Shown: one piece after another, positions 2,237-63,790 of the stretch
Layout: every line of letters begins with the position of its first letter
Position numbering within the stretch: the first letter of the stretch is position 1
NCBI GenBank assembly: GCA_044356305.1
Contig: JBIKWM010000008.1
Span: 33,947 to 97,946 of the forward strand
DNA: 64,000 nucleotides
Direction of reading: 5' to 3'
Source of the DNA: Flavobacteriales bacterium
GTDB taxonomy: Bacteria > Bacteroidota > Bacteroidia > UBA10329
Notes under the pieces: generated by a model
Told to the model about the DNA's origin: nothing
The model's database searches: none
The model's input: the letters and a program-made list of their open reading frames with translations, nothing else
Position numbers and translations under genes: made by a program

Positions 2237-3657
2237 TGCGCGCCCTGCTGCTCTGCTGCCTGCTGCTTCCGCTCGGTGCCCTTGCACAGGGCGAAAGTGT
2301 GCTGCACTTCCGTATCAACGGACCGAAAGACGAGCGCCTCTCGCTCAAGGTGATCAACACCCTGCTTGGCGATACCACCACGCTCGATATCGACCCTGTC
2401 AGACAGGACGAGGTGCGCCTGCCTGTCGGGCCTTTGGCGCCAGTCATCCTCCGCTACAAGGATAAGGATGCGCGTTTCCGCACCTGTGCCGGCTGCGAGG
2501 CCACGGTGGCGTTCGATGCCGAATTCCTCACCGAGACCTTCAAGGTCGAGGGCGGGCCCGAGGTGCAGTTCCTCGCCCGGCTGGACAGCACCTTCGGCAA
2601 CCGCAACATGTTTGTGTGGCTCATGGAGCAGACAGCCGCGGCCACCAATGTGGACGGGCTCGAGATGGACCTGTTCCGCCTGCGCAGGCAGACCATGGAC
2701 CTGTTGGGCAAGAGCGCGGCCAACGATGCGTTCAAGGTCTGGTTCCGCAAGCACGTGAGTGCATACTACCACTACGGCCTGTTGGCCTTTGCAAGCCAGC
2801 GCACCGAGCGCGACAAGCCCGAGAAGGCCATCAGCCTGCCGCCTGTGATGGCCGATGAGATAACGTGGCCCATGGTGCAGGACCGCCAGATGCTCACCGA
2901 CCGTTTCCACACCGCCCTGCTCGTGGAGTATGTGCGCTACAGGGCATTGCAGGAGCGCGACTTCTACCGTTTCAAGACAGCCGAGGAAGAGGTGGACGCG
3001 GTGGTCGATGTGGCACGGGCCAACCTGACCGACAACGAGGTGCTCCGCCATTTCTGGTACCACTACGCGCTCATGAGGCGCGAGTCCCTGCCTGCCTCCG
3101 ACCTGAGGCGACTCATCAAGCTGCATGGCACCGAGGGCTCTGACCTTGAGCAGCGGCTGGCCAGGCTGGTGGGCCCGCGGCTCTACGATGCCGAGCCTGC
3201 AAAGGGCAAGACCGAGGCCGATGCCTCCTACGCAGGGCCCGACATCGCCTTCAACAAGGTGGGGGGCGGCACCTTCAAACTGGCCGACCTCAAGGGCAAG
3301 GTGGTCTACCTCGATGTGTGGGCCAGCTGGTGCGGCCCCTGCCGCAAGGAGTTCCCCTACAGCAAGGAGCTGATGGCCCGTTTCAGCAAAAAGGACCTCA
3401 AAAAGATCGCCTTCGTGTTCATCAGCATCGACAATACCGAGGATGCATGGATGAAGGCCCTCGATCAGTTGCAGCTCGGTGGCACCCACGGGTTCAGCCC
3501 GGGCGGGTGGCAGAGCGAGATATGCAAGAAGTTCGGGGTCAACAGCATTCCGCGCTACATGCTCTTCGGGCCCGATGGCCGCCCCATTGAACTCAACGCC
3601 CCGCGCCCCAGCGACCCCGCCCTATACGACCTGCTCCGCAAGGTGGCAGGGCTCTGA
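2236..3657 (+). CDS. TlpA-like thiol-disulfide oxidoreductase (thioredoxin/redoxin fold) with large N-terminal domain
   Basis: Signal peptide MRALLLCCLLLPLGALAQ. C-terminal WASWCGPCRKEFP (CxxC redoxin motif). TGATG overlap with the upstream stop. Confidence 0.8.
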   Translation: MRALLLCCLLLPLGALAQGESVLHFRINGPKDERLSLKVINTLLGDTTTLDIDPVRQDEVRLPVGPLAPVILRYKDKDARFRTCAGCEATVAFDAEFLTETFKVEGGPEVQFLARLDSTFGNRNMFVWLMEQTAAATNVDGLEMDLFRLRRQTMDLLGKSAANDAFKVWFRKHVSAYYHYGLLAFASQRTERDKPEKAISLPPVMADEITWPMVQDRQMLTDRFHTALLVEYVRYRALQERDFYRFKTAEEEVDAVVDVARANLTDNEVLRHFWYHYALMRRESLPASDLRRLIKLHGTEGSDLEQRLARLVGPRLYDAEPAKGKTEADASYAGPDIAFNKVGGGTFKLADLKGKVVYLDVWASWCGPCRKEFPYSKELMARFSKKDLKKIAFVFISIDNTEDAWMKALDQLQLGGTHGFSPGGWQSEICKKFGVNSIPRYMLFGPDGRPIELNAPRPSDPALYDLLRKVAGL

Positions 3658-3670
3658 GGCCATCCCTCTC

Positions 3671-3735
3671 GTCATCGCGATGGGTCTTCCCTGAACACTC
3701 CGTCCTCTCGTCATGGTGAGGAACGAAGCAATCTC
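3671..3735. repeat. short dispersed intergenic repeat family (GTCATnnnGAG..GAAG..ATC-like), copy 1
   Basis: gtcatcgcgatgggtcttccct ... gtcatggtgaggaacgaagcaatctc. Related units at 4615-4646 and 4766-4830. Confidence 0.35.
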
Positions 3736-3843
3736 ATACTTGTCCTTACCATCCGTGGGTCACTAAGGGCCCTCCGTGAAATACCCTTTGGCATTGACCC
3801 AATGGTTCAATGGATGGAGGACATATAGCGGCAATACTTTGGA

Positions 3844-4161
3844 CTACTCCAATTCAAACTGCTTACCTATCTCCATGCGTCCGTTAATCACCGCCAGGAC
3901 CGTGATACCGTTCGCCCCATCCGGGTCATATATGATGCGGTAGCCCCGATAGACGATCTCCCGTAGCGTGTGCAAGGGCGTTCCGACAAACTCAGGTACT
4001 GCGCGCCCCATGTGGCGGTTGTTCGGAAGGTGCTCTTCCGTTGACTGCACCAGACGCTGTACAAAGCGCCATGCATATACCTCCGAGTCATGCGCAATGA
4101 ACTCATAGATGGCCCGGAGATTGGCCTCCGCCCTGTGCGACCAGATCACACCTTGCGCCAC
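3844..4161 (-). CDS. type II toxin, RelE/ParE family
   Basis: 105 aa, ...IYDPDGANGITVLAVINGRMEIGK typical ParE/RelE fold signature. Overlaps the upstream small ORF by 16 nt. Confidence 0.75.
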   Translation of the reverse strand: MAQGVIWSHRAEANLRAIYEFIAHDSEVYAWRFVQRLVQSTEEHLPNNRHMGRAVPEFVGTPLHTLREIVYRGYRIIYDPDGANGITVLAVINGRMEIGKQFELE

Positions 4162-4340
4162 GCGTTCATCCGCTCCAGAAGTTCCCCTGTGCTGGCCACC
4201 TTGCCCATTTCCGCATCACTCATCCCCTGAAGCACCTGGTCGATAAGGTGCAGCTCGTTCATGATGTCCTCCATCTTGCTCTCAGGGGGCATCTTTTTCA
4301 GAACCTCAATGCTCGTATCTACTAAGGGTGTGGTTGCCAT
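4146..4340 (-). CDS. putative antitoxin partner of the RelE/ParE toxin
   Basis: 64-aa ORF immediately upstream of and overlapping the toxin gene (operon position). Confidence 0.55.
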   Translation of the reverse strand: MATTPLVDTSIEVLKKMPPESKMEDIMNELHLIDQVLQGMSDAEMGKVASTGELLERMNAWRKV

Positions 4341-4614
4341 GGTCTGAGAATTTCAACCGAAGGTAAGTACCTGTATGGATTTAGGAACTTGGGGTAAGTG
4401 ATTCCCCGCAGTCTTACCAATAGACGTATTTATATGAGGGTGATTTAGGGGCAGTTCGCTGGGTGGCCTTGGACATTTCACGTTGCGAAACCGGGGTAAG
4501 GGAGCGTGCGCAGGCCCGAGGAAGCGTTCCGTAGAGTGAGGTCTTCCGAAAGGCCCGGAACGCGCGGAAAGCGACCGTCCCCGAGTTTCGCAGGGAAATG
4601 TCCACTAGCCTGTT

Positions 4615-4646
4615 GTCATCCTGAGCATGTCGAAGGGTTTTGATCC
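4615..4646. repeat. short dispersed intergenic repeat family, copy 2
   Basis: gtcatcctgagcatgtcgaagggttttgatcc. Confidence 0.35.
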
Positions 4647-4765
4647 TGGAGTTTATCCCGCCCTTGCGGGATATCAAGACAAAAGGATGAAAAGGAATAC
4701 TCCGAAGCGAGCATAAGGATAACTGGTACAATTGAGGGCAATCACATGGGGTAATGTTGCGCCCC

Positions 4766-4830
4766 GTCATTGCAAAGGGTCTTCCCTTCAGCGGTCCGCT
4801 CCAGTCCTGCATCGCAAAGGGCAGGTACCC
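4766..4830. repeat. short dispersed intergenic repeat family, copies 3-4
   Basis: gtcattgcaaagggtcttccct and gcatcgcaaagggcaggtaccc. They share the core with copy 1. Confidence 0.35.
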
Positions 4831-4875
4831 ACGCTAAGCCTGCATGGACGCGACCGGTCCTGTCAATATCTCACC

Positions 4876-5328
4876 TCAGTCCTTCACCGTCACGGTGCCG
4901 GCCGTGAAGTCGCGGCCCACGATCAGGCCATACTGCTCGGCTGTGCGGTCCATCAGCACCACGGGCACCTTCTTCCATATCATCTCAGTGCCCTGGTTGA
5001 GGCCCAGCTCCAGCATGGCCGTGTAATACGGCTTGCCGCCTATGGTCACCACGCCTTCGGCACGGCTGTTCACCGTGCGGCCCTCCCCGGCCTTGTTCAC
5101 CAGTTTGAAGGTCATCGGGTTGCCCACGTTCTTCTCCATGCTCGGACCCCCGTTGCTCACCGCTATGCGCTCGGCATGTATCAGGCTGTGCGCCTGTGTG
5201 GTGTCTATGTCGGCATCCCATCGGGTGTTGCTCTCGCGCACCTCCACCTTACGGTGGCGCTCGGTGGTCTGTTGGGCAACGGCATCAACGGCACAGCATA
5301 GCAGCAGGGCGAACATCAGGTGGCGCAT
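4876..5328 (-). CDS. secreted hypothetical protein, possibly retropepsin-like (DUF785-type) domain
   Basis: Signal peptide MRHLMFALLLCCAVDAVAQ. C-terminal ...VVLMDRTAEQYGLIVGRDFTAG resembles DUF785 / putative zinc-protease family endings. The family assignment is tentative. Confidence 0.55.
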   Translation of the reverse strand: MRHLMFALLLCCAVDAVAQQTTERHRKVEVRESNTRWDADIDTTQAHSLIHAERIAVSNGGPSMEKNVGNPMTFKLVNKAGEGRTVNSRAEGVVTIGGKPYYTAMLELGLNQGTEMIWKKVPVVLMDRTAEQYGLIVGRDFTAGTVTVKD

Positions 5329-6700: not shown

Positions 6701-8911
6701 ATGGCAAGCTATAATTTTTACCTCGATAAGGCCGATAAGAAGGGCTATTCGCCTATCCACCTACGGATCAATTGCGATGGAGAGCAAGTGAAGATTGCCA
6801 CCAAAGAGAAGGTGAACCCGGAAGACTTTGACAAGAAGAAACAAAGGGTCAGAACTGGCAGAGACCGTGCTGAGGCTATCAACCATTATTTGGAACAACT
6901 CCAACAATCGGCAGAGGAGGTGTTCTCAAAGTCAAGCAAAGGAAGAGTGACCTTTGATGAAGTTAAGAAACGGCTGACTGATGTAGTCGATTCCTATAGG
7001 TCTTACAGCAATGTGTCGATGGTAAAGGAGCAATTAGGGCTCTACCGAACTTCTTTCACATTCATAGATCTTTTTGCCGGTGCTGGGGGATTCAGCGAGG
7101 GCTTCCTTCAAGCTGAATACAACAACAAGGTTTTTGATTTCATTGCCGCCAGCGATATCAATGAGAACTGCGAACTGACCCATGAGGTGCGTTACAATCA
7201 TCAGCTCGGGTTAGATATGAAGTTTCTGCGGCAGGATATTACAGCACCTGATTTCCTCGATAATCTACTTGCTGCCGTTGGAAAGAGAAAGATTGATGTG
7301 GTTTGTGGAGGCCCTCCTTGTCAGAGCTTCAGTTTGGCAGGTAAGAGGCGGAAGTACGATAAGAAGGATGACCTGTTCGCGCATTACTTAGAGGTGATCC
7401 GTGCCCTGCGCCCCAAGTATTTTGTGATGGAGAATGTAAAGGGGATATTGACTAAGGAACAGGGTAAGATCGCTGAAGAGATCCTCAAGGAAATGCAGTC
7501 AATCATTGATCTTGAGGGGTTGCCAAAGCTGACTGCATTTATAAGGGTAATCAAGGGGAGGGCGTCAGAAAGGGATATATTGTTGGATAGCATTGCCAAT
7601 CGGCTTAAGCAGGAAGGCCTCAAGGATCAAGAACTAGAAAAAGCGAGGGAAGAGTACATTGGTGTCCTTGATACTTTCTTCAAACAGCTCACCCCGTTGA
7701 TCGCTGACTACAAGACGAGCAAGACCGATGGTAGGATAAGCACAATAAGGCATGGGCTCAACCTTTTACAGCGTAGGACACGCCTCATGCGACTGCGTCA
7801 GGAAGTGATCAAGGAGAAGGACCTGAATTATCTGGATAACGATGCATTTGAGGCTGATTTCAATGCATTCATCCATGCTTTGGAACCCGAGACAATCGTA
7901 GAAAGGATATCATCGGCTTTCGATGCCCTTGTTGTTCCAAAGGCCCATCAGGCCGCGATAGATGGTTTCAAAGAGGCGCTAAGAATTTACACCGCCACAT
8001 TTGATGATTGCATTGAGCGGTTGCGTGCCCTTTGTAATAGTCAAGAGAAAGAAAAGCTCGAGATTATTTTGGAGGAAATCAAGCTGTACCGGATCAATTC
8101 ACCACTTGTTGTCAACTCGTCTGATTATGGTGTGCCTCAGAACAGGGAGCGGGTTCTGTTCATAGGATGCAGAAAGGATCAGAAACTTATCGGCTCGGTG
8201 CCCGCTACGGTCGGGCCCAATGAGAAAGTGTCGGTATTCGAGGCACTTTATGACCTTGATTTTCTTGGCAATAATGAAACCGCCACCCATTACCGGGAAA
8301 TTGACCTCAAGGCCCGATACAATGGATCAACAGCCCGCATGTTGGGATTGATCAAGAAACGCTCTGTGGATGGTGTGCCACAAGATCAGGAAGGCATGAC
8401 CTACGCTCAATGGAGCAGAGAAGGAAGATTACTGTCAGATTATGAGGTCAGGAAACCCGTGTATGTTCGAAATGATGAGGATCTTAAGAAAGGGCGGTTC
8501 GTTCACGAGCCCCTGCCTAATCATCAGACCAGTAACCAGAGCGATAAAGTCGTTCAGCGATTAGAGATTATCCGGAAATCCGGAGATTATAAGCTTGCGC
8601 AATCTGCCCTGTCAGAGGTAGGGCTCAGTTCAGAAAAACGCAACTACTCAGTGCTGCACCCTGAGAAGCAGAGCCCCACTGTGATGACCATTGCCGATGA
8701 CTATGTGCACTACCGGGTGCCCCGTGCCCTGACCGTGCGAGAAATGGCCAGACTACAATCGTTCGATGATTCGTTCGTATTTCAAGGTAAGCGATCCACA
8801 GGCGGCAATGGCCGGAAGTTTGAAATCCCTCAGTTCACGCTTGTGGGGAATGCAGTGCCGCCATTGATGGCGAGAGCAGTGGCGATGGAGATTTTGAGGA
8901 ATATCCGTTAA
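6701..8911 (+). CDS. DNA (cytosine-5)-methyltransferase, Type II R-M; N-terminal 106 aa resemble an integrase arm-type DNA-binding domain
   Basis: Motif I FIDLFAGAGGFSEGF, motif IV GGPPCQSFSLAGKRR, motif VI ENVKG, motif VIII QNRERVLFIGC, motif X GNAVPPLMARAVAMEI. Alternative internal start ATG at 7019 (MVKEQLGLYRTSFTFIDLF...). The region is AT-richer than the flanks. Confidence 0.9.
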   Translation: MASYNFYLDKADKKGYSPIHLRINCDGEQVKIATKEKVNPEDFDKKKQRVRTGRDRAEAINHYLEQLQQSAEEVFSKSSKGRVTFDEVKKRLTDVVDSYRSYSNVSMVKEQLGLYRTSFTFIDLFAGAGGFSEGFLQAEYNNKVFDFIAASDINENCELTHEVRYNHQLGLDMKFLRQDITAPDFLDNLLAAVGKRKIDVVCGGPPCQSFSLAGKRRKYDKKDDLFAHYLEVIRALRPKYFVMENVKGILTKEQGKIAEEILKEMQSIIDLEGLPKLTAFIRVIKGRASERDILLDSIANRLKQEGLKDQELEKAREEYIGVLDTFFKQLTPLIADYKTSKTDGRISTIRHGLNLLQRRTRLMRLRQEVIKEKDLNYLDNDAFEADFNAFIHALEPETIVERISSAFDALVVPKAHQAAIDGFKEALRIYTATFDDCIERLRALCNSQEKEKLEIILEEIKLYRINSPLVVNSSDYGVPQNRERVLFIGCRKDQKLIGSVPATVGPNEKVSVFEALYDLDFLGNNETATHYREIDLKARYNGSTARMLGLIKKRSVDGVPQDQEGMTYAQWSREGRLLSDYEVRKPVYVRNDEDLKKGRFVHEPLPNHQTSNQSDKVVQRLEIIRKSGDYKLAQSALSEVGLSSEKRNYSVLHPEKQSPTVMTIADDYVHYRVPRALTVREMARLQSFDDSFVFQGKRSTGGNGRKFEIPQFTLVGNAVPPLMARAVAMEILRNIR

Positions 8912-9819
8912 CGAAATCGAAAGTATTCAAATCTTCCCCCAGCCCTGAACTCTTCAAGGTTCTCAGACATGTCCTGAAGGATGGAGCGGCTATAGCCGGG
9001 CATATAATTGTTTGCGAAAATCTCCTTGATGGAGCGGGCCACATTCTCTTTTGTCTCTTTACCCCAATAGTTGCCGCCTGAAAGATTGGTGACACGCTTC
9101 ACGGCCACAGAATCAGATTTGTATTGCGCCCTAACATTAGAAGGGACGGTTATGAAGGCGTAAGTGAACGAGGCACACATCTGGATGCTGAACGAGTTGC
9201 GCCCGATGGTGATGTTGCGTCCTCGGAAACCGCCCGCAGAGTAGATCATGTCCCATAGCATAGGAATCTGGGCATTGTCATTCCAATTGGTCTTGCATTG
9301 GATGATGCCGATGCTGAAATCTGAGAACTGATCTGCGACCGCGCGGTCGAGGGCTGCGTAATTGATCTGTCCATTGCTATTGAGGAAACCGCTCTCTGCG
9401 GCATCGGCAGTGAACAATGGCATATCGGGGAAAATGATGACGGTGATATCAGATTCCGTGTTGCACGAGAAATTGCCGTAATTCACGGTAATGGCGTCTT
9501 GAATTGGCTTGGGCACAAGGCTCATTTTCTTGATGGCGACCACCCTAGTACCAGCGGTGCAGAGGTTAACATACCAAGCTACGAGCGATTCCCATGCCGT
9601 TCCGCCAGCGGATACCTCGCCCTGTCCGCGCCCTGTTCCGCCCGTACTCGTGAAGATCTCCGAAAGGTGATTGCCCAGATTCAAAAGATCCTCTGCACGT
9701 GGATTGGCACCAATTCTCCGCTGTATCTGTTCACTCCAAACAGGCCAGCACGATTGAACCGTATCCGTAGAGAAAACCGACTCTACAGCTTTCTTTCTTA
9801 TAACCTCGACAATGTTCAT
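8908..9819 (-). CDS. putative Type II restriction endonuclease (cognate of the C5-MTase)
   Basis: 303 aa from ATG at 9819 (MNIVEVIRKK...); the track ORF extends to 9927 with a G-rich, unlikely N-terminus. Convergent with the MTase and overlaps it by 4 nt. Possible PD-(D/E)xK-like signature ...VIIFPD...(x)...DFSIGIIQCK. No recognisable family beyond context. Confidence 0.5.
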   Translation of the reverse strand: MNIVEVIRKKAVESVFSTDTVQSCWPVWSEQIQRRIGANPRAEDLLNLGNHLSEIFTSTGGTGRGQGEVSAGGTAWESLVAWYVNLCTAGTRVVAIKKMSLVPKPIQDAITVNYGNFSCNTESDITVIIFPDMPLFTADAAESGFLNSNGQINYAALDRAVADQFSDFSIGIIQCKTNWNDNAQIPMLWDMIYSAGGFRGRNITIGRNSFSIQMCASFTYAFITVPSNVRAQYKSDSVAVKRVTNLSGGNYWGKETKENVARSIKEIFANNYMPGYSRSILQDMSENLEEFRAGGRFEYFRFR

Positions 9820-9956
9820 GGGGCCAAAGGAACGGCATTTGATGGAATGAGGCTGTTTGAGTAACCCCACGCCCCCCCGTCCCACACGTCCCCCCTGTCC
9901 CACATCAACGCCTCCCTTCCCGCACACACTTTCATTGCGGGGAGGTTATGCCCCCA

Positions 9957-10313
9957 CTATTTCCTGTTCTTGATGATTTCCTCTATCAGCGCCCTCACCG
10001 CCTTCCACAGAGCAGTCGTCTCAGACGTGCTCAGGTGCTGCAGCAAAGCCGCCAGGTCCACTCCCTTCACAGGCTCCACCTTGGTCATCGGGTGGTTCTC
10101 GGCCGTCCCCGTATAAATGAACAGCTCGTTCATCGTACAGTCGAATAGCTCACAGAGCCGAACCAGATGCTTCCCCTTATAGTTGTCCACCTTCAGGTCA
10201 AGCAGCGTCCGCACCTCACTCCTCGTAAATCCGTTATTCCTCAAGTGCGAGCTCAGATCTTTCACTTGCTTGTTCTTGGCCAGTTCCTTCAGGTTCAGCT
10301 GCAGCTCTTTCAT
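9957..10313 (-). CDS. HTH (XRE-like) DNA-binding protein, candidate R-M controller (C) protein
   Basis: 118 aa. HTH segment LRNNGFTRSEVRTLLDLKVDNYKGKHLVRLCELFDCTMNELF. Lies directly upstream of and co-oriented with the REase candidate, the classical C-protein position. Confidence 0.6.
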   Translation of the reverse strand: MKELQLNLKELAKNKQVKDLSSHLRNNGFTRSEVRTLLDLKVDNYKGKHLVRLCELFDCTMNELFIYTGTAENHPMTKVEPVKGVDLAALLQHLSTSETTALWKAVRALIEEIIKNRK

Positions 10314-10436: not shown

Positions 10437-10700
10437 TTGCCTCCGCCACCGCCACGTGTGGTGCCGCCCCCACCACATCAGGCACCCTCACCGCCATGTG
10501 TGGTGCCGCCACAGCCACTTATGGCGCCCCCACCGCCATGTGTGGTGCCGCCACAACCACATCAGGCAGCGCCACAGCCACGCATGGCAACGCCACCACC
10601 ACGTGAGGTGCCGCCACCACCACGTGCGGTGCCGCGGCCACCGCAACAGCGCCCGCCCCGACACATAATTCCATCGCCCCCCTCGCTTCCACCACAGCCA
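10437..10700. repeat. degenerate tandem repeat (~21-nt units in ~42-nt higher-order periodicity) rich in CACGTG/CATGTG cores
   Basis: Units ccaccgccacgtgtggtgccgcc / ccgccatgtgtggtgccgcc / accaccacgtgaggtgccgcc, at least 6 copies, in a divergent intergenic region. In one frame it encodes a proline-rich ORF (10437..10766) ending with an ATGA overlap onto the next gene. Confidence 0.7.
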
Positions 10701-10762: not shown

Positions 10763-11665
10763 ATGACCGACCGCCAGTCCAACACCCTCGACATGTACGT
10801 GGTAGTACTCGAGCACTATGCCGCCAACCAGACCACCATCGATGCCGTTGTCGCCCGCGCCACTGCCTATGCAGCACTCTCCACACGCGTCACAGGCATC
10901 CGCGCCCTCATAGCCGACCAGTCCGGCAACATCAGTGGCGTCACCCAGAACAAGGCCGCCCTTCGTGCCTCCCTCGACAACCTCGCCATCGGCATACTCG
11001 CCCCCGCCCTCGTCTGGGCCCGCGCAACAGATAACCTCATCCTCGCAGCCGAATTCAACTACCCATTGTCCGAGATCCAGAAGATCAAGGACGACACCAT
11101 CGCATCCTTCTGCAACCACCGCTACGCCTTGGTCAATGCCAACATCGCCACCATGGCCGACTACGGCATCACTCCCGCCATGCTCACCGCATGGAACTCC
11201 GCAATCAGCAACTACGAGGCCGTCACAGGCTCCCCACGCAGCGCCCGCGTCTCCAGATCCGTGTTCACCATCGCCCTCCGCACCCACTTCAAAGAGGCCA
11301 ACGCACTCCTCAAAAACACCCTCGACCCCCTCATGAACTCTTTCCGCACCTCCGATGCCGACCTCTACAACGGCTACCGCAGGGCACGCATCATCATCGA
11401 CCGCAGAGGCCAGAACACCGGATCCATCTCCGGCAAGGTCTCCTCCGCAGCCGACTCATCTCCCATCATCGGGGCCGAGCTATCCATCACTCCGCGCCCG
11501 TCCACCGTGCTCTCAGGCTCCGATGCCACCTACCGCTTCTCCTACCTGCCGGCCGGCATCTATACCGTCAAGTGCACCGCCCCCGGCTTCCTCCCGGCCG
11601 ACAAGACCATCGTCCTCACCTCCTCGCAGACCGCCACAGCCGACTTCGTCCTCATCCCCGCCTGA
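10763..11665 (+). CDS. hypothetical protein with C-terminal carboxypeptidase-regulatory-like beta-sandwich domain
   Basis: 300 aa. C-terminal GKVSSAADSSPIIGAELSI...YRFSYLPAGIYTVKCTAPGF...ADFVL typical CarbopepD_reg-like fold. Confidence 0.7.
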   Translation: MTDRQSNTLDMYVVVLEHYAANQTTIDAVVARATAYAALSTRVTGIRALIADQSGNISGVTQNKAALRASLDNLAIGILAPALVWARATDNLILAAEFNYPLSEIQKIKDDTIASFCNHRYALVNANIATMADYGITPAMLTAWNSAISNYEAVTGSPRSARVSRSVFTIALRTHFKEANALLKNTLDPLMNSFRTSDADLYNGYRRARIIIDRRGQNTGSISGKVSSAADSSPIIGAELSITPRPSTVLSGSDATYRFSYLPAGIYTVKCTAPGFLPADKTIVLTSSQTATADFVLIPA

Positions 11666-11738
11666 TACTACCGGCATATCCCGCCCTCCAAGGCCCTCCA
11701 TCTGCGGGGGGCTTTTTTCATGCTGCCCGGCACGGGTC

Positions 11739-11850
11739 CCCCAAACAGAAAGCGACCCTCGCGGGCCGCTTTTCTTAGGATATGTGCACAGACCTTACTC
11801 CCCCTTCGCGAAGCGTGTCCCGTGCGTGGTCCAATCCGCAAGAGTGAGGT
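11739..11850. repeat. orphan copy A of a T9SS-CTD gene 3' end plus hairpin (gene-remnant repeat)
   Basis: About 75 nt near-identical to 12553-12628. The reverse strand encodes ...VARFAKGE* followed by the hairpin AGAAAGCG/CGCTTTCT. It also resembles the real 3' end of the CTD gene at 13566. Confidence 0.6.
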
Positions 11851-12043
11851 GTTGAGACGCTTGTCCGTCCTGTTAGAATTGGAAAATTGAATTCACTTCT
11901 CGGTTGATGGATCGGTCGGGCTTTTCACTTTCACCGCTCTCCTTTTGAAGTAGGCCAGTATCTCCTTGGGAGTCCGGCCTTCTGTTTCGGTGGTGATCCG
12001 TTCGCGTTCCTTACGCACCATGGCCACACAATCAATGTGCTTA

Positions 12044-12508
12044 TTACTCTCCGTCTTCATAGTCAAAGGCTTCTCTCGGGTTTCGAATCTCCAGGATCTG
12101 GTATCCCTTCAACAGATTTATGGCGTTATAGCCATGAATTCTCTCAATGTTCACGATGTGTTTGAAATTCCAGCTCACCAATAGGTCAGCCCTGTAGAGG
12201 GTGGCCAAGGCAATATGATAGCAATCGGCCCGGCTTGATCTGCCCACCACATTCGCATTGAGGTAGGCCTCTGCGAGGAGAATGGCTTCTTCTGTGAGTT
12301 CCACTCTGATGAGGTTCTTTTCAGCAATCTGACCTACGAACTGTCGTACAGCCTCTGGTGCATTGACCAGTTCATCTTCAGCCACATCGGAAAAAATCAG
12401 TCGGATGTCGGTCTTATCAACCTTCCTGAAAAAGCGATCGGTCCACTCTGCGAATTCCCTATCAAACCTGCCTCCAAAGACCGAAGTGTCAACATATATC
12501 AATCGCAT
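12044..12508 (-). CDS. PIN-domain (VapC-like) ribonuclease toxin
   Basis: Start at ATG 12508 (MRLIYVDTSVFGG...). The track ORF extends upstream through repeat copy B, which is spurious. PIN acidic residues D6...E...D are present. Confidence 0.7.
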   Translation of the reverse strand: MRLIYVDTSVFGGRFDREFAEWTDRFFRKVDKTDIRLIFSDVAEDELVNAPEAVRQFVGQIAEKNLIRVELTEEAILLAEAYLNANVVGRSSRADCYHIALATLYRADLLVSWNFKHIVNIERIHGYNAINLLKGYQILEIRNPREAFDYEDGE

Positions 12509-12552
12509 GAAACAAATGTAGTGTTTCCGCAAATAGTTGATTCCCGCTTCCG

Positions 12553-12664
12553 GCCCAAACAGAAAGCGACCCACGCGGGCCGCTTTTCTTAGGATATGTG
12601 CACAGACCTTACTCCCCCTTCGCGAAACGCGCCACCTGCGTGGTGCCATCGGGCAGGGTTCAGG
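12553..12664. repeat. orphan copy B of a T9SS-CTD gene 3' end plus hairpin
   Basis: Shares cccaaacagaaagcgacccacgcgggccgcttttcttaggatatgtgcacagaccttactcccccttcgcgaa with copy A, then continues like the 13566-13620 coding 3' end. Confidence 0.6.
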
Positions 12665-13162
12665 TCAGAGTTCGTACAACGGCCTCTCACCATGACTTTC
12701 TAGCAACGTATTGAGTAAGGGTAGGGAATAGTAGCGCCCGCTGGTGATGAAGGCAGAGAAAAGTGGCCTGAGCTCAGTGATCAGACCTTTGTTTTTTGCT
12801 GCCACAAGAACGCCCAAGGTGCCAACGCATGAGATGCCGAGCGTTTCGGCTATGCGTCTGGCCTTTCTGTCATCAATCAACAGGAAGTCGGCCTCCATCT
12901 CCTTGCAGAGCATAACGGCCTCCGACTCGCCATCGTCCATCATGAAAGTGAGCTCATTGATGCCCTTCACCGCGCGCACCTTATCTTGGAAGAACGCATG
13001 AATGCGGTGATGGTGAGGGGTTGCGGGGTCAGATGTGACCTCGTGCCAAACGGCATCGGGGATCAGAATATGTGAGAATAGCGAAGGCAGAATATGTAGC
13101 CGGTCTATGATCGCCAATGAGAAAATGGGGCCAGAGTCTGCAACAACCTTCTGCCCACGCAT
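12665..13162 (-). CDS. DUF3368-type PIN-like toxin
   Basis: 165 aa. Partner of the upstream UPF0175 ORF, with a 1-nt spacing. Confidence 0.7.
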   Translation of the reverse strand: MRGQKVVADSGPIFSLAIIDRLHILPSLFSHILIPDAVWHEVTSDPATPHHHRIHAFFQDKVRAVKGINELTFMMDDGESEAVMLCKEMEADFLLIDDRKARRIAETLGISCVGTLGVLVAAKNKGLITELRPLFSAFITSGRYYSLPLLNTLLESHGERPLYEL

Positions 13163-13163
13163 G

Positions 13164-13433
13164 CTACTTCAGCTTTTTGACATCGGCCATCACCTCATCA
13201 ACAGAAAGGTGAGAGATAGCGACCGCGTTGTTCGATAGGAGCTTCTCGAACTGTAGGCGGGGCAGTCCTGCAAGCTGAGCGGCCTTGCCTATGGTGAGTT
13301 TCTGTAGGCCATAAAGCTGAACAGCCAAAGTGACCTTGACCCGCTGTGTGATTTCCTTCTCCGTCTCGTTGAGTGCCAGAAGGATATCGGTCGGAAGGTC
13401 GATGGAGATGGTGTGAACGGAATTAGAGGCCAT
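13164..13433 (-). CDS. UPF0175-family antitoxin
   Basis: 89 aa, ...LPTDILLALNETEKEITQRVKVTLAVQLYGLQKLTIGKAAQLAGL... Matches the known UPF0175/DUF3368 pairing. Confidence 0.7.
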   Translation of the reverse strand: MASNSVHTISIDLPTDILLALNETEKEITQRVKVTLAVQLYGLQKLTIGKAAQLAGLPRLQFEKLLSNNAVAISHLSVDEVMADVKKLK

Positions 13434-13518
13434 AGGTCAACTCTTTGAACCCAAAGGTAATGCAATCAGAACACCGGTGGCGGGTCCGACCCCATTGAGC
13501 CACGGGGTATAACAACAA

Positions 13519-13543
13519 GGGCGGTCCCGAGACAGGACCGCCC
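13519..13543 (-). terminator. rho-independent terminator of the SprB-repeat gene
   Basis: Perfect 9-bp stem GGGCGGTCC/GGACCGCCC with a 7-nt loop, followed on the minus strand by TTGTTGTT. Confidence 0.5.
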
Positions 13544-13565
13544 ACTGTTCATGTGCCGAAGTGAA

Positions 13566-15320
13566 TCATTCCCCCTTCGCGAAGCGCGCCACCTGCGTGG
13601 TGCCATCGGGCAGAGTGAGGCGCAGGGCGTAGGTGCCCGGGCGCAGATGGGCTGTGCTCAGTTGCAGTTGGCCGCCAGTGGTGCTGATGGTGCGCTGCAT
13701 GGCCGTGCGGCCCATCATGTCGGTGATGGTGACCAGCGCAGGGCCATCGGGCAGCGAGGCCATGCGCAGGGTGAGGGCATCGGTGGCCGGGTTGGGGAAC
13801 AGCGCCAGGGTGGGGGAGGTGGTGGCCGCATTCACGCCCACCAGATCGCTGATGGTGTTCAGCGTGGTGTTGGTGATCACCGGCTCGTTGAAGTCGAAGT
13901 AGATGTAGGCGGTGTTCTCAATCTCGGTGCCCTGTGGCGTGCCGCTCAGGGGCGAGATGGCATAGATCACATAGCCGTGGCTGCCGGGCTCATCGCTGGT
14001 GCTGTCGGGCAGGTTGATGTTGTCGAAGAAGAAATCGACCTCGTTGGTCGGGCTGATGCTCACCTGCATCAGGTGGCTCTGGCTCAGGACACGGAAGCTG
14101 AGCGGGTCGAGGTCGGCATCGAGCTGATCCTTGACATGGATGAAGGTGGCCGCAATGGTGCCCGTGTTCTGGAACCGTACGGTGTACATCAGCTCGGTAC
14201 CGCTGGGCACAAAGCCCTCGGGACCCATGCCCACGGGCGCCACCTGCTTGTCGTTGGGGTCGAAGGAGCACAGCACCGCCACGGGGTGCGCATCGGTGCC
14301 GGCCGAGGAGGTGAGGTCGATATCGACCATATCGCCACAGTTGACCGTGAGCGGCACACAGGCCACCACGGTGGCCGTAAAGGTGTTGCCGGCCGGTAGG
14401 TACACGCTGTTCCATGTGGCCGTGTTGCCGCTGATCAGGTCGGGGGTGGGGCTTACGCCCTGCAGATTGATGTCGCTATCGAGCGTGATGGAGAACGGCC
14501 CGTTGTAGATGGAGCACGAGTTGTTGACCAACTGTGCGCTCAGGCTGGAGCAGAACCCGCGGTTGAGCCACGATACCACATAGGTCTCGGGCTGCGCACC
14601 GATGGTGGGCATGTAGATGCTGGCCGATCCGCTGCACGCACCGTCACTCACTGTAACCTGCGCCACCGCGGTGTTGCTCACGGTAATGGTCTGGGTGGTC
14701 TCGCCCGTGCTCCACAGGTACGAGAAAGGCCCTGCGCTATTGGCTACATCGGCAGTCAGGTCGGTAGGCCCTGCGCAAGGGTTGCTGTTGCTCGATGTGA
14801 TGGTCACCTGTGGGCCTTCGGTCACATTGTAGGTCTCGGTGGTGGCACATCCGTTGGCATCGACCAACGTGAGGATGTAAGCACCTTGGCACAGCCCCGT
14901 GACCACCGGTGAGGTGTTGCCGTTGGGTGTCCAACTGTATGCATACGGGGAGTTGCCACCGGTCACAATAACCGAAATGGACCCATCGCACGCCCCGCAC
15001 GTTGGCGGGGTTATGACCTCGGACGTCAGCACCGGGGTAGAACTGACAATGGTCGCGGCCTGCGTCTGACTGGCCCCTTGGCCGTCAGTCACTGTGAGGA
15101 CGTACACGCCCGGACATAGGTTGAAGAGGTTCTGTTCCGTGGATCCATTGCTCCACATGTAGGTATAGTTGCCATCGCCTCCGAACACCACTACCTGCAC
15201 CGAGCCGTTGCACATGCCCTCACAAGTGGCCATGTTGGGTAACAGCGAAATAGTGAGCTGCGCCTGTGCGGCCATGGCGCTGACGACAAGGGCCGAGACA
15301 AGGGTAATGGTACGGAGCAT
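13566..15320 (-). CDS. SprB-repeat (Ig-like, CxxC) cell-surface protein with T9SS type-A C-terminal domain
   Basis: Signal peptide. Repeated ...C(E/G)xxCxGS(I/V)xV...GGxxxY.Y.W modules. C-terminal LALFPNPATDALTL...GTYALRLTLPDGTTQVARFAKGE. Confidence 0.85.
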   Translation of the reverse strand: MLRTITLVSALVVSAMAAQAQLTISLLPNMATCEGMCNGSVQVVVFGGDGNYTYMWSNGSTEQNLFNLCPGVYVLTVTDGQGASQTQAATIVSSTPVLTSEVITPPTCGACDGSISVIVTGGNSPYAYSWTPNGNTSPVVTGLCQGAYILTLVDANGCATTETYNVTEGPQVTITSSNSNPCAGPTDLTADVANSAGPFSYLWSTGETTQTITVSNTAVAQVTVSDGACSGSASIYMPTIGAQPETYVVSWLNRGFCSSLSAQLVNNSCSIYNGPFSITLDSDINLQGVSPTPDLISGNTATWNSVYLPAGNTFTATVVACVPLTVNCGDMVDIDLTSSAGTDAHPVAVLCSFDPNDKQVAPVGMGPEGFVPSGTELMYTVRFQNTGTIAATFIHVKDQLDADLDPLSFRVLSQSHLMQVSISPTNEVDFFFDNINLPDSTSDEPGSHGYVIYAISPLSGTPQGTEIENTAYIYFDFNEPVITNTTLNTISDLVGVNAATTSPTLALFPNPATDALTLRMASLPDGPALVTITDMMGRTAMQRTISTTGGQLQLSTAHLRPGTYALRLTLPDGTTQVARFAKGE

Positions 15321-47363: not shown

Positions 47364-48335
47364 CTACTCCCTTTGCACCACAAGTTTACGCACTGCCACG
47401 GCACCGTTCTCAAACTGTGCTCGCACCATGTACACCCCAATGTTAAGGCCACTTACATCTATCTCCCGCACCGCACCGCCATGGCTTTGCAGATCCCGCC
47501 CGCTCAGGTCATTTATGGCCACTGTGTTTATTCGCCTGTTGCTATTGTGGCTTATGGCCACAGTTGTTGTGGCGGGGTTGGGGTAGATATCAAAGCCATA
47601 CATTTCGCTGTCTTTGACACCGTTGGGTAGTTCTATACGCCTGACGGAAACATCGTCAATAAAGTAATATGCAATTCCAGAAATTATACTTGTGTCGTTG
47701 ATAACATCTGTATCCTCATCCGTACTAAAATTCCCGATGGTTAAAAAAGATTCAGCCCCACTGGCAACGTACAGTGCATCAAAATTATACCATAAACCAG
47801 ATTCCTGCATAAATTCAATTCCTGGCCCAATTATTTGAGGTGCCACAGGCAAGAGAGGAAAGCTGCCAGTATCGGAATAAACTGGTTGTGAAGAAAAATG
47901 CATACCGATGGATTTAATGGCAGGTGCAACGTTACATGACTTTGAAATATGCATTTTAACCCTATAAGTACATCCATAAATTAAGGTTTCCTTTAGTTTA
48001 TTCGAAACATATTCTCGGCCATTTCCTGACCGTGAATAAACAATGAGACCAATCATGCCATCACCTGAATTGGTCATGTTAACGTTACAATCCATTGCCG
48101 GAATACCCACATATGGATTCATTTCATTTGCACATAAATTAAAATAATCCGGAGTGCCAGTTGTTGGGTTGTACCAATGTAACAATTTATCCACTTCACT
48201 AGGTACAAAAGGAGGACTAATTTGAGTTGGACATTCATAATACTCCTCAAATCCACCATTAGGGACAAGATTGGGTTCTTGCGAAAACCCTTTATCCGCG
48301 GCCAACAATAGACCAATAATTATTATTGCTCTCAT
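47364..48335 (-). CDS. T9SS cargo protein, CBM4/9-like N-terminal domain, type-A CTD (duplicate copy 1)
   Basis: Signal peptide. QEPNLVPNGGFEEY start typical of CBM_4_9. C-terminal ...YPNPATTTVAISHNSNRRINTV...GVYMVRAQFENG. Confidence 0.75.
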   Translation of the reverse strand: MRAIIIIGLLLAADKGFSQEPNLVPNGGFEEYYECPTQISPPFVPSEVDKLLHWYNPTTGTPDYFNLCANEMNPYVGIPAMDCNVNMTNSGDGMIGLIVYSRSGNGREYVSNKLKETLIYGCTYRVKMHISKSCNVAPAIKSIGMHFSSQPVYSDTGSFPLLPVAPQIIGPGIEFMQESGLWYNFDALYVASGAESFLTIGNFSTDEDTDVINDTSIISGIAYYFIDDVSVRRIELPNGVKDSEMYGFDIYPNPATTTVAISHNSNRRINTVAINDLSGRDLQSHGGAVREIDVSGLNIGVYMVRAQFENGAVAVRKLVVQRE

Positions 48336-48820
48336 GGTGCCAAAATAAACTTACTCGTGATTCCTGAGATTTGAATAAAGTAAACCCCACCAGCAAAGCC
48401 GTTAAGTTCTAACTTAGTTTGGCCACAATTTAGAATATTACGCTCTATAACGTGACCTAAGGGATTAGTGATCACATATTCAAACTTCTCTTCTGATACG
48501 CAACCTTCAACTCCGACCCATACGTGACGAGTAGTTGGGTTAGGATATACTATGACCTTAATGGACGATTCATCATCGTCAGTCACAGGAACTAAGTCGT
48601 CTTGTCCTCTTCTTTCAGAAGGTGGTTCTGTCAATAACTCACATTCATTGATCCATTCCCTATGCACCAATGTATCACGAGCAGAAAGTACTGCCCTTGC
48701 CAGATAAACTGAACTTCCTGAATCAAGCGGGCAAGCCGATGCCAAGGATTCGAGCCATGGCAGATCGACACTGTCGGGCATGGTGTTCTCTGACCAATGT
48801 GTGATGTTATAGGCCATCAT
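48332..48820 (-). CDS. CTD-only ORF (T9SS sorting domain without signal peptide); possible gene fragment
   Basis: C-terminal ...VIVYPNPTTRHVWV...GGVYFIQI. No N-terminal signal. 4-nt overlap with the downstream cargo gene. Confidence 0.5.
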   Translation of the reverse strand: MMAYNITHWSENTMPDSVDLPWLESLASACPLDSGSSVYLARAVLSARDTLVHREWINECELLTEPPSERRGQDDLVPVTDDDESSIKVIVYPNPTTRHVWVGVEGCVSEEKFEYVITNPLGHVIERNILNCGQTKLELNGFAGGVYFIQISGITSKFILAP

Positions 48821-48859
48821 CCTGGTTAAGGTACGTTCAGCATCATAAACTACAGGTTG

Positions 48860-49804
48860 CTACTCCCTCTGCACCACAAGTTTACGCACCGCCACGGCAC
48901 CGTTCTCAAACTGTGCTCGCGCCATGTACACCCCATTGTTAAGGCCACTCACATCTATCTCCCGCACCGCACCGCCATGGCTTTGCAGATCCCGCCCACT
49001 CAGGTCAGTTATGGTTACAGTACTTATTCGCCTGTTGCTTTTGTGGCTTATGGCCACAGTTGTTGTGGTGGGGTTGGGGTAAAGTTCAAAGTTCAGTTGC
49101 TCATAATCTTTTATTCTATTGGGTGGATCTACACGTTTGACTGAGACATCGTCTATGAAGTAATAGGCCATTTGCAATCCACCGGGCAATAACTGAAATG
49201 GCGTTTCACTATCCAATAAAAAATTGCCTATTGTCAGGAACAACTCCCCTCCATTTGCAAGCAGGGTATCAATATACTCAAACCAATGGTGGACATCACT
49301 GAGTATAACAGAAGGATCATGATTTAGAGATGGTGTTAAACTCAATGTTGAATGATCAACATTCATTTCTGAAATTGAATCAATTGAAAAGTGAGTTCCA
49401 AATGAACCAATATATCCGATACAACATGTAGATATTGGTCTCAATTGGACTGAAGTTTCATAGTACTGGTTGTAAAGCAAAGGCTCAGTTAATTTAGTAG
49501 ATAAATATTCTTTAACGCCATATAAGCCAAGGCCAATCATTCCATTTCCCTCATATGGATAAACTGAATTACTCCCGAAATTGCAAGGGACTCCGTAATC
49601 GGAAATTATTTCATTTGCACAGATATGAAATAATTCAGGTGTACAATTCGAAGGAATAAACCAACTTGCAGCAAAGGCCCCTTGGCCTCCTTGAGAAGGA
49701 CATTGTATATATTCTTCAAACCCACCATTTGGCACTAAATTGGGTTCTTGTGCGGTACAGAACCCAAAAAAAGAAGAAAAGCACATTAAGGACACCTTTC
49801 TCAT
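48860..49804 (-). CDS. T9SS cargo protein paralogue (duplicate copy 2)
   Basis: Start ATG 49804 (MRKVSLMCFSSFFGFCTAQEPNLVPNGGFEEY). The 3' 230 nt are ~95% identical to 47364-47640. Confidence 0.75.
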   Translation of the reverse strand: MRKVSLMCFSSFFGFCTAQEPNLVPNGGFEEYIQCPSQGGQGAFAASWFIPSNCTPELFHICANEIISDYGVPCNFGSNSVYPYEGNGMIGLGLYGVKEYLSTKLTEPLLYNQYYETSVQLRPISTCCIGYIGSFGTHFSIDSISEMNVDHSTLSLTPSLNHDPSVILSDVHHWFEYIDTLLANGGELFLTIGNFLLDSETPFQLLPGGLQMAYYFIDDVSVKRVDPPNRIKDYEQLNFELYPNPTTTTVAISHKSNRRISTVTITDLSGRDLQSHGGAVREIDVSGLNNGVYMARAQFENGAVAVRKLVVQRE

Positions 49805-49945
49805 GGCACCAAAATAATTTTGTTGGTGACCCCTGAGATTTGAATAAAATACAATCCCCCCGGCCCGCGCGAGTGTTCCGTAGGACCACTCGTGTGGTGT
49901 GGAACACGATCGGTCTGTGACCGATCTAACAACTAGGCATTCCAT
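49805..49945 (-). pseudogene. degraded remnant of a second CTD-only ORF
   Basis: Reverse strand encodes ...GGIVFYSNL.., aligning with the GGVYFIQISGITSKF tail of 48332..48820. Flanking nt similarity exists (tgagatttgaataaa). Confidence 0.4.
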
Positions 49946-61242: not shown

Positions 61243-62262
61243 ATGAAAGCGGGCTGCGGTAGTAGAAACTCAGGCACAGCTGGCACCTTTGCCGAGAAGG
61301 AACGCGCCCTCAATTGGAACCTCTTTGACCTCCGCACTTACGATGGCCGCACCGGCCGCTTCCACAACCCTGACCCCATGTGGCAGTATGCCAGCCCCTA
61401 CATGGCCATGGGCAACAACCCGTTGAGTGTGGTGGACCCTACGGGGGGAGAGGGCAGCGAAGGAGGCTCCTGTCCACATAGTCTGGTCGGTACATGTTGC
61501 GAATGTGAAGGAACTTGCCCCACGGGCAATTCATCCAGTAACTCAAATGGATTGACATGGAGCTGGGGTGACGGGCAAGGGACCTCAGGTGGAACAGGTG
61601 CACCGAAACTTGGTGCTGCCGACCTTCAGGATTTAATTTTCAAATCAAATAACGAAGAGGAGATCCATGCCCTGTATCTCGCACTGTCAACTGTTGATAA
61701 TTGGATATATGAGGCGCGAGCAAGTAATATTCGTGAACAAGGGCTCGCCAATGGAACTGTTGGAAATCTAACAGCGAGTCAGGATGGGCCCGGTGATGGG
61801 CATGGTCAGTCAAGGCTTGTCAATTCAGATTCAGGCCCAAGACCATTTTCCTCCAATCCATATATTCATGGAGCAAAATCCTTTATGGATTATGTTTATG
61901 GAACCTTCTATGATATTGGAACCCTTATTGAGCATATAACTTATACCAATCCGAATGTAATAACAGGAATGCCACCTGACGGCATTATTGGAGGACCATT
62001 GAAAAATGGAGATAAGGCGATTCGACTAGGCAAAATATTATTGAACAGAAATGCTTGGCACACCGTAAAAGATACTTTTTTGAAAAGTGCTGGAGGGGGT
62101 CGAGGTAAGTGGGCACATATTGTGGGGACTAATCCGGATATTGATTATATTGGGGGAAGGATTGTTCTTGCCGGTAGGGATGCATTTCGTGGTAAAACAC
62201 ACCCAACGGAGTACACTCTTGACATGTTTATAGATTTTCTTTTAAAAAATGGGTTGAAATAA
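61243..62262 (+). CDS. orphan RHS C-terminal toxin tip (conserved RHS-core end followed by unknown ~290-aa toxin domain)
   Basis: Starts FAEKERALNWNLFDLRTYDGRTGRFHNPDPMW...DPTG (RHS core terminal motif). There is no upstream RHS core (stops and a GNAT gene). Lower GC. Confidence 0.7.
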   Translation: MKAGCGSRNSGTAGTFAEKERALNWNLFDLRTYDGRTGRFHNPDPMWQYASPYMAMGNNPLSVVDPTGGEGSEGGSCPHSLVGTCCECEGTCPTGNSSSNSNGLTWSWGDGQGTSGGTGAPKLGAADLQDLIFKSNNEEEIHALYLALSTVDNWIYEARASNIREQGLANGTVGNLTASQDGPGDGHGQSRLVNSDSGPRPFSSNPYIHGAKSFMDYVYGTFYDIGTLIEHITYTNPNVITGMPPDGIIGGPLKNGDKAIRLGKILLNRNAWHTVKDTFLKSAGGGRGKWAHIVGTNPDIDYIGGRIVLAGRDAFRGKTHPTEYTLDMFIDFLLKNGLK

Positions 62263-62269
62263 TTAAGGA

Positions 62270-62626: not shown

Positions 62627-62762
62627 TAGCATCGCTTACAAGCTACCTCCAGCAGTTTCAAAGAAATCGCCCTCCAGCCCGATCAAGTGTTCCGAGGGGT
62701 CACTTGGTCGGTAATAAGTTCTCACTGTTTGCAACAGTGATGAAACAAAAAATATCCATATT

Positions 62763-63757: not shown

Positions 63758-63790
63758 TTTTGTTGCCAAGCGCTAAGTTGATTTACTGTT

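Follow-up and report, generated by a model that had tools for sequence, protein, structure and literature searches.

Two toxin-antitoxin cassettes apparently inserted at the 3' end of a type IX secretion C-terminal domain gene in a Flavobacteriales bacterium

Movement of chromosomal toxin-antitoxin (TA) modules is poorly understood, most of them being devoid of mobility genes. For the displacement of rhs C-termini, a small circle plus a single crossover was proposed by Jackson et al. 2009 (PMC2935791): repeats recombine into a circle containing one gene fragment and its cargo, and a crossover of this circle into an intact gene shunts the old end downstream. Other systems of comparable appearance are the minimal mobile elements of Neisseria (Saunders & Snyder 2002; Snyder 2007; as described in PMC3787668) and the integrative elements, including cis-mobilizable ones, that target gene 3' ends (reviewed in PMC5704250). 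The locus considered here belongs to a 64,000-nt stretch of DNA from a Flavobacteriales bacterium (assembly GCA_044356305.1, contig JBIKWM010000008.1, positions 33,947 to 97,946), hereafter called the window, in whose coordinates all positions are given. Between a host gene encoding SprB repeats and the C-terminal sorting domain (CTD) of the type IX secretion system (T9SS), and a convergent CarboxypepD_reg-domain gene, it displayed an islet of two TA units, namely a PIN-domain toxin gene with a 57-aa partner and a UPF0175/DUF3368 pair. These units were bracketed by copies of the extreme end of the host gene. One site catches three stages of cassette gain, the scars of which consist of the displaced host gene end and its terminator.

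A repeat search of the window returned copies A and B as a direct repeat of 106 nt (11740-11845 and 12554-12659) with 89% identity. Their core of 67 nt (11746-11812 and 12560-12626) contained only one mismatch, located in the loop of a hairpin, and gave two matches in 64 kb vs. none in 100 shuffles; the longest exact block was 53 nt. On the minus strand, both copies displayed the end of an open frame, with tail LTLADWTTHGTRFAKGE-TAA in A and TLPDGTTQVARFAKGE-TAA in B, and in each a spacer of 17 nt separated the stop from a GC-rich hairpin of 10 bp, the tail of which was rich in U. The tail remnants were short (16-17 codons each), and copy B began five nt past the DUF3368 stop codon. The true end of the host gene (13566-13616), LTLPDGTTQVARFAKGE-TGA, matched B more closely than A, with identities of 96% and 77%, respectively, over 47 nt. 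The repeated tail corresponds to residues 568-584 of the host protein, at the C-terminal end of which Por_Secre_tail PF18962 was recognized (residues 507-571 of 584, 39.6 bits vs. a cutoff of 27). The first-pass annotation, made from the letters of the window, had described two segments of ~100 nt, near-identical over ~75 nt, reading on the reverse strand as the last codons of a T9SS-CTD followed by a hairpin and resembling the 3' end of the gene at 13566; all of this was confirmed. The BLASTN count of copies that it had proposed was run in part: no further copy of the tail-plus-hairpin unit was present in the 64-kb window, and a 24-nt piece of the spacer had no exact match in species-representative genomes and JGI metagenome contigs. 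No Rfam family was recognized in the unit either, the best matches (16-20 bits) lying far below thresholds of 50-75 bits.

Comparison with relatives allowed identification of three haplotypes of this locus: empty, PIN only and both. In L012 and L013 (80% DNA identity), a single CTD gene ended in RFAKGQ-TAA and was followed by a hairpin homologous to, but diverged from, that of copies A and B. The CarboxypepD_reg gene that is the convergent neighbour in the window also began here, 144 nt past the CTD stop. These two loci represent the empty site, with the ancestral order gene, tail, TAA, spacer, terminator and neighbour. In L014, the intact gene was joined to copy-B sequence (tail, TAA, spacer, hairpin) and then to a PIN sequence 96% identical to window positions 12659-12297, without any UPF0175/DUF3368 unit. 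The CTD genes of L014 and the window were 95-100% identical over their 3' kilobase, and copy B equalled the intact gene end of L014 except for two bases in the hairpin loop. The window itself represented the third haplotype, with both TA units at the site. As a homologous hairpin is encountered at the empty site of L012/L013 and the same sequence at the gene end of L014, the A/B hairpin is the native terminator of the host gene. By the same comparisons, B is the original end of this very gene, displaced by the 957-nt UPF0175/DUF3368 unit, and A the scar of an earlier insertion of the PIN cassette. The hairpin that now follows the true gene end (13519-13543) differs from the A/B hairpin and is stronger; it was unrelated to the native hairpin of L012, L014 and copies A and B, having come in together with the UPF0175/DUF3368 unit. 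L006, the nearest of the species-representative genomes (43% amino acid identity), was too distant to inform on the site.

Relatives lacking the TA genes, with which the first-pass annotation had suggested a comparison, were hence found both as empty sites (L012/L013) and in a PIN-only form (L014). Its idea that addiction modules were successively inserted into the CTD gene end is supported by the three haplotypes, and that of the CTD tail plus terminator as scars by the equivalence of B with the L014 gene end and by the native character of the A/B hairpin. Its alternative, replacement of whole CTD-bearing genes, found no support and is not required, B being the displaced end of the same gene and the remnants comprising only 16-17 codons. 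A related explanation would be a decayed array of tandem CTD genes with similar ends, the downstream bodies of which were replaced by TA genes while tails and terminators remained. Tandem CTD paralogs with homogenised ends do exist in the window (47364-48335 and 48860-49945; 3' ends 86-93% identical, the rest ~78%). This explanation is nevertheless very unlikely: B matches the gene's own end in L014, the empty site of L012/L013 is a single gene abutting its neighbour, and remnants of 16-17 codons, with B starting five nt past the toxin stop, are not what two independent deletions would readily leave.

That the repeats or their arrangement originate from metagenome mis-assembly is hardly credible, even though short-read contigs break at these repeats. 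The arrangement was recovered at 100% identity in independent assemblies (L001, L003 and L005 from Logan, L004 from ENA), of which L004 spans copy A while L001 covers copy C (the tail attached to the gene) as well as the complete UPF0175/DUF3368 unit and stops within B; JGI and NCBI records carry the same genes. Moreover, the copies differ mutually, unlike in an assembly collapse, and the same architecture was encountered in a complete isolate genome (L096, see below).

The three copies could be dissected further. Copy C was native up to a 29-nt block common to B, after which it displayed three changes relative to B (CGT>CGC, GAG>GAA and TAA>TGA) and the foreign terminator. All three changes were synonymous and left the host protein unchanged, which indicates that the tail versions of C and B both evolved as working gene ends. 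Copy B reciprocally consisted of the cassette junction, the block common to C and then the native 3' part. Copy A displayed 11 differences in the 47-nt tail part and only one in the next 67 nt, with a sharp boundary, and continued into native downstream sequence past its hairpin. To judge from their composition, C, B and A are chimeras of the kind that a single crossover predicts. Differences between the window and L014 were clustered beside the insertion (eight in ~105 nt, vs. ~one in the 280 nt just upstream), which indicates that flanking gene sequence was co-transferred with the cassette, a signature of homologous exchange. At a variant site, x, copy B of the window displayed T and the distal copy of L002, from another sample, C. 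The interval of exchange was situated left of x for the UPF0175/DUF3368 unit and at or right of x for the PIN unit, with an overlap of only two nt, which suggests that the crossover was variable rather than fixed. Each unit possessed its own putative promoter box and was closed by a terminator.

The host gene displayed a mosaic structure relative to L014: its first ~800 nt (the N-terminal SprB-repeat region) were only 47-82% identical, the remaining ~1 kb 95-100%. This suggests a recombining, hypervariable and probably surface-exposed N-terminus.

From these observations, the interval separating the T9SS-CTD gene from its convergent neighbour is rather probably an insertion site for cassettes, the last ~50-110 nt of the gene serving as recombination substrate. 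Circle formation plus a single homologous crossover is likewise, with somewhat better than even confidence, considered the best explanation for entry of the units and their movement among relatives. Each unit would have entered by homologous recombination through the CTD tail, most economically by a single crossover of the chromosome with a small circle carrying the cassette and one tail copy. The PIN + 57-aa unit is located behind the native terminator and followed by a second tail plus terminator (A). The 957-nt UPF0175/DUF3368 unit is located inside the tail, supplying a synonymous end and a new terminator and shifting the original end (B) downstream. Recombination between flanking repeats may release such circles again, while spread among relatives could proceed by ordinary homologous recombination in the flanks. 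The duplication presumably keeps the CTD gene intact, so that insertion would be tolerated by purifying selection, and TA addiction would penalise loss by repeat-mediated deletion. Together, these two features would explain why TA cargo persists between direct repeats.

The features of the islet and its borders are collected in Table 1. The UPF0175 and DUF3368 genes were adjacent on the same strand, antitoxin first, with a gap of one nt (13164 / 13162). By families and order the pair fits a type II TA module, toxicity being predicted, and UPF0175 was described as the exclusive partner of COG2405/DUF3368 (PMC5499597). The PIN protein was 79% identical to its L012 homolog and both started at the same residue. 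Its true start is the internal ATG at 12508, and the 201-aa open reading frame (ORF) from inside copy B (12044-12649) an artefact. This longer ORF starts in the orphan copy and enters the PIN gene from another frame, and the public gene call appears to start 16 nt past the DUF3368 stop. Orphan gene ends beside TA genes mislead gene callers in this manner and break short-read assemblies. The 57-aa partner, without any Pfam or NCBIfam match, was encountered by tblastn at 17 of 80 PIN loci (see below), always -13 to +3 nt from the end of the PIN gene. The PIN unit accordingly represents a two-gene module of toxin-first order, with the 57-aa product as presumed antitoxin. The families named in the first-pass annotation, a PIN gene and a DUF3368/UPF0175 pair, were borne out by Pfam (marginally for PIN), while the conserved 57-aa ORF must be added to its description. 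Its remark on the lower G+C content (GC) of the TA genes was equally borne out, the islet displaying 48-55% and the flanks 60-68%. Promoter boxes of the form TAnnTTTG were not enriched window-wide (16 found vs. 16.9 expected), so that only their position serves as an argument. Neither the host protein (584 aa) nor the PIN protein (154 aa) was on record according to exact look-ups.

Table 1. Coordinates of the features of the TA islet and its borders.
Feature	Position	Strand	Evidence and remarks
Host gene, SprB repeats + DUF7619 + T9SS C-terminal sorting domain, 584 aa	13566..15320	-	Pfam; orthologs with 90%, 82% and 43-46% identity
Copy C, tail attached to the gene (final 15 codons + TGA); repeat on the upstream side of the UPF0175/DUF3368 unit	13566..13613	-	29-nt block identical to B
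Terminator hairpin now closing the host gene	13519..13543	-	Terminator scan; fold -35.8 kcal/mol, z = -3.75
Putative Bacteroidetes-type -7 promoter box TACCTTTG, 19 nt upstream of UPF0175	13452..13459	-	Same box precedes L012 and L095 homologs
UPF0175 antitoxin, 89 aa	13164..13433	-	PF03683, 78.2 bits
DUF3368 (COG2405) PIN-like toxin, 165 aa	12665..13162	-	PF11848, 41.8 bits
Copy B, orphaned original host 3' end	12553..12664	-	Tail 12612-12659, TAA 12609-12611, spacer, native hairpin 12560-12589
Putative -7 promoter box TACATTTG, 5 nt upstream of PIN start	12513..12520	-	TACCTTTG at the equivalent place in L012
PIN-domain toxin, 154 aa	12044..12508	-	PF01850, 24.4 bits vs. cutoff 23.6 (marginal)
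57-aa partner ORF, presumed antitoxin	11893..12066	-	Overlaps PIN 3' end by 23 nt; 52% identical in L012
Copy A, distal scar of PIN insertion	11739..11850	-	Diverged tail 11798-11850, TAA 11795-11797, spacer, native hairpin 11746-11775
Convergent neighbour, CarboxypepD_reg-domain gene, 300 aa, with terminator 11694-11711	10763..11711	+	Pfam, terminator scan; fixed right-hand border of the site

Homologs of DUF3368 were numerous in databases (215 at E <= 1e-30), and every organism-named match was from Bacteroidota. Relatives were absent from viral contigs, and those found in plasmids were all below 37% identity. A set of six loci was considered, comprising the window, L012 and four further fetched loci (L095, L096, L097 and L099). 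Five of the six were flanked by repeats, each of local sequence, and only L097 displayed none. In L012, homologs of both window units (72.5% and 67.6% DNA identity) occupied the interval that separates DUF2400 from the CTD gene, on the upstream side of the latter; a 56-nt repeat unrelated to that of the window bracketed the UPF0175/DUF3368 pair there. Flanking repeats measured 62 nt in L095 and 64 nt in L096, which stems from the complete isolate genome of Marivirga tractuosa and corresponds to ~346.2-347.4 kb of CP159478.1. In L099 (Tamlana sp. I1), the pair was embedded in long repeat-rich flanks. These contained, on both sides of the pair (2783-3644 and 4582-5193 of that locus), units of 117-560 nt with 80-92% identity, including a TGACTAT tandem run, and they differ in kind from the 50-64-nt repeats of the other DUF3368 loci. 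The repeats of the window, L012, L095 and L096 were mutually unrelated, and the search for a common motif among the flanking repeats of the DUF3368 loci returned nothing beyond chance (one p = 0.015 in ~48 tests). Across loci, the cassettes were homologous only in their promoter box and their two genes, with no conserved ends. The longest exact blocks were of 26-37 nt in the four repeat pairs; as a speculation, surviving cassettes may be those whose repeats had decayed into poor recombination substrates.

The L012 repeat was also compared with the CTD tail. As a decayed tail-plus-hairpin unit it was rejected, alignment scores falling within the shuffle distribution, and no third repeat copy was present upstream of the first L012 cassette. 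With this idea, an integron-like shuffling array comprising the whole locus was rejected as well.

The PIN family was surveyed in a metagenome scan, in which 579 stretches encoded relatives and 80 loci, 48-65% identical, were kept. A direct repeat of any size flanked the cassette in 24 of the 73 testable loci, as opposed to an inverted one in only two. Among loci with full flanks, direct repeats of at least 40 nt were found in ten out of 29, vs. two out of 116 mock segments from the same loci. The repeats were locus-specific, 24 to 281 nt long and of mixed kind, about half of them being unclassified. In L093, a helicase gene of RecD/PIF1 type had its last 193 nt repeated, the orphan still scoring as UvrD_C_2, and in L036 the last ~273 nt of a gene were duplicated at the PIN cassette. 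At L079/L084 and L078, duplications concerned gene 5' ends instead. PIN cassettes of L046, L058 and L022 were located between integron attC-like repeats, as judged by eye and by a home-made scan. Boxes of attC type, e.g. GCCTAAC...GTTAGGC and GCATAAC...GTTATGC, surrounded PIN + small-partner cassettes in L046, L058, L022 and L025, which indicates that, in other hosts, this family moves as integron cassettes too. L041 displayed a hairpin-rich direct repeat of 280 nt (3669-3948 and 4592-4871 of that locus, 96% identity) around its PIN cassette, with 54% GC vs. 37% in the cassette; no ORF of at least 60 aa overlapped the downstream copy, and the repeat may represent either a structured RNA gene or some other element.

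Several points weigh against entry of the cassettes through a circle and a single homologous crossover. L014 is a 2.2-kb short-read contig in which an assembly jump over the shared tail is possible, although the native-end status of A and B does not depend on it, as L012/L013 show the same thing. Neither a circular form nor an excision junction was observed, L002 fitting a circle and an integrated copy equally well. Within A, identity changes from 77% to ~99% over a few bases only, for which either the donor must have been mosaic or A and B must later have undergone gene conversion. A perfect palindrome, TTCGCGAA, lies in the tail where the two exchange intervals meet, and an overlap region of 6-8 bp is possible there. 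The circle model covers spread among relatives that share the target and leaves aside the first duplication at a new, non-homologous site. Lastly, the similar repeat sizes at four UPF0175/DUF3368 loci (48, 56, 62 and 64 nt) are unexpected under free homologous recombination and hint at a size-determining step or at selection.

Some of these points would be accommodated by site-specific accretion, in which the units are tiny recombinase-less integrative elements moved in trans by a recombinase that recognises a site in the CTD tail, the repeats being of attL/attR type. The palindrome at the meeting point of the exchange intervals, the uniform DUF3368 repeat sizes (48-64 nt) and the gene-proximal position of the newer unit fit such a process. 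So do the PIN cassettes of the same family between attC-like repeats in L046, L058 and L022; furthermore, tandem stacking at a gene 3' end together with a replacement end is generally regarded as typical of integrase-driven elements. The exchange intervals themselves, however, barely overlap, site x varies between populations, and ~100 nt of the flanking gene were co-transferred. The window unit is devoid of an R''/R' box pair, and its hairpin is an ordinary host terminator already present at the empty site. At four sites, the same TA pair was flanked by unrelated sequences with no common motif beyond chance, and cassette ends were not conserved. Nor did the islet or its surroundings contain a recombinase: none was encountered between the flanking genes, among those larger ORFs (90 aa or more) of 1-10.5 kb that were tested, or among the tested genes of 10.7-15.3 kb, and no recombinase family was recognized among the called genes of ~15.3-26 kb (seen through L005). 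Site-specific accretion is on balance considered unlikely.

A duplicative insertion deserves about as little credence. Here the repeats would be long target-site duplications generated by the insertion itself, e.g. through fill-in of overhangs after capture of foreign DNA between widely staggered nicks or breaks, and later homologous exchange would only shuffle them. This would account for repeats that are always local target sequence and unrelated between loci, for their similar sizes (48, 56, 62 and 64 nt) at four independent DUF3368 loci and, unlike the circle model, for first arrival at new sites. However, no bacterial mechanism is known to yield target duplications of 50-280 nt, and the repeats of PIN cassettes vary from 24 to 281 nt. 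The patterned differences between C and B, with the foreign 3' part on the gene side, and the bipartite structure of A also resemble recombination products rather than decay.

The circle-plus-crossover explanation may be extended, tentatively and with less confidence than at the locus itself, to a wider proposal. Small type II TA operons, belonging to two or more unrelated families (PIN + partner and UPF0175/DUF3368), could behave as recombinase-less mobile cassettes, the insertion of which creates or rides on a 50-280-nt duplication of the local target (gene 3' end, 5' end or promoter region). The duplication would keep the neighbours intact and offer portable homology for excision as a circle and re-insertion, addiction would stabilise the repeat, and attC would be used instead in integron-bearing hosts. 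Both TA families, which displayed this pattern in unrelated bacteria as well, were bracketed by target-derived repeats far more often than controls, which suggests a simple route of TA spread, with homology on a small circle and retention by addiction.

Other features of the window were recorded besides the islet. Three of its four TA pairs were flanked by repeats. The only one without flanking direct repeats (3844-4345) comprised a 105-aa toxin of the ParE family, encoded on the minus strand, and a small partner ORF upstream of it, just downstream of a thioredoxin-like gene. An RHS/YD orphan-toxin array (61243-63760) contained three direct copies (79-89% identity) of a 117-nt segment encoding the core end YDGRTGRFHNPDPM. 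The first core copy belonged to an ORF of 339 aa whose tip was variable, and behind this ORF lay an immunity-like one of 118 aa; a YefM-like/YoeB-like TA pair (62984-63516) was located between the second and third core fragments, and GC amounted to 42% at 62-63 kb. The tandem T9SS-CTD genes mentioned above (47364-49945, minus strand) encoded 323 and 361 aa and were separated by a 162-aa CTD-like ORF. Their GC was 41-49%, and the identity of 86-93% between their 3' ends extended over 233-317 nt, as compared with ~78% elsewhere, which indicates that CTD ends appear homogenised by recombination in this genome. Directly upstream of the CarboxypepD_reg gene, ~11 copies of a 21-nt tandem unit (10438-10668, 62-83% identical) formed a C-rich array, proline-rich in one frame, with a homologous array in L012. 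A probable restriction-modification unit of low GC (47-52%) extended from 6701 to 10313. It included a 736-aa protein in which an integrase-type Arm-DNA-bind_5 domain is fused to a C5 cytosine methylase, an unusual fusion, a 339-aa ORF without family match (possibly an endonuclease) and an HTH_26 regulator.

Among known systems, integron cassettes share with the window units a small size of one or two co-oriented genes, each followed by a hairpin repeat of ~50-140 nt, and TA cargo is typical of them. The repeat of the window, in contrast, is host coding tail plus terminator, and one exchange lies in coding sequence outside the hairpin. No R'' (RYYYAAC) / R' (GTTRRRY) pair was present in the A, B or L012 repeats according to a home-made regex-plus-fold scan, and the window hairpin consists simply of a 10-bp terminator stem, which is already native at the empty site; an attC identity was rejected on both counts. 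IntI was likewise absent from the ORFs and called genes inspected for recombinases over the same regions. Integrative elements targeting gene 3' ends, including the cis-mobilizable ones (PMC5704250), resemble the islet by their direct repeats, tandem arrays at a gene 3' end and replacement end. Window units, however, are of only 0.8-1.0 kb and lack an integrase, conserved ends or a common att; no att core common to the UPF0175/DUF3368 repeats of the window, L012, L095 and L096 was found, these being unrelated, and evidence at the window favours variable crossover points.

Like the minimal mobile elements of Neisseria, the site harbored variable whole-gene cassettes between fixed genes (here the CTD and CarboxypepD_reg genes), without recombinase or insertion sequence, and spread by homologous recombination in the flanks is suggested here by the cluster of differences. 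Unlike the islet, minimal mobile elements as defined are not bracketed by duplicated target. Their vehicle is natural transformation, whereas for the lineage of the window sequence support concerns flanking recombination only.

The islet most resembles the displacement arrays of rhs, as well as those of contact-dependent inhibition (CDI) and maf systems (PMC2935791). In both, an intact gene is followed by downstream fragments repeating a conserved piece, incoming modules are of lower GC and inserted sequentially, the old end is shunted downstream and content varies among close relatives; the proposed mechanism, a circle from repeats and then a single crossover, is also the same. The window even contains a textbook example of this architecture in its RHS array (61283-63659), which the CTD-tail islet parallels. 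Repeats of the islet, however, correspond to the extreme 3' end of a gene (15-17 codons, stop and terminator), in contrast to the pre-toxin core repeated in rhs arrays. Its cargo consists of autonomous TA operons instead of a new C-terminal tip with an immunity gene, and the host protein remains unchanged, without polymorphic-toxin logic. The islet works like an rhs displacement array, yet it is not a member of that group, as it offers no alternative protein tip. If the reading is true, it would extend the rhs displacement model to ordinary genes. The locus itself is a clear example of a variant on an already known displacement architecture, and the habitual bracketing of two TA families by target-derived repeats might be the part that is new.

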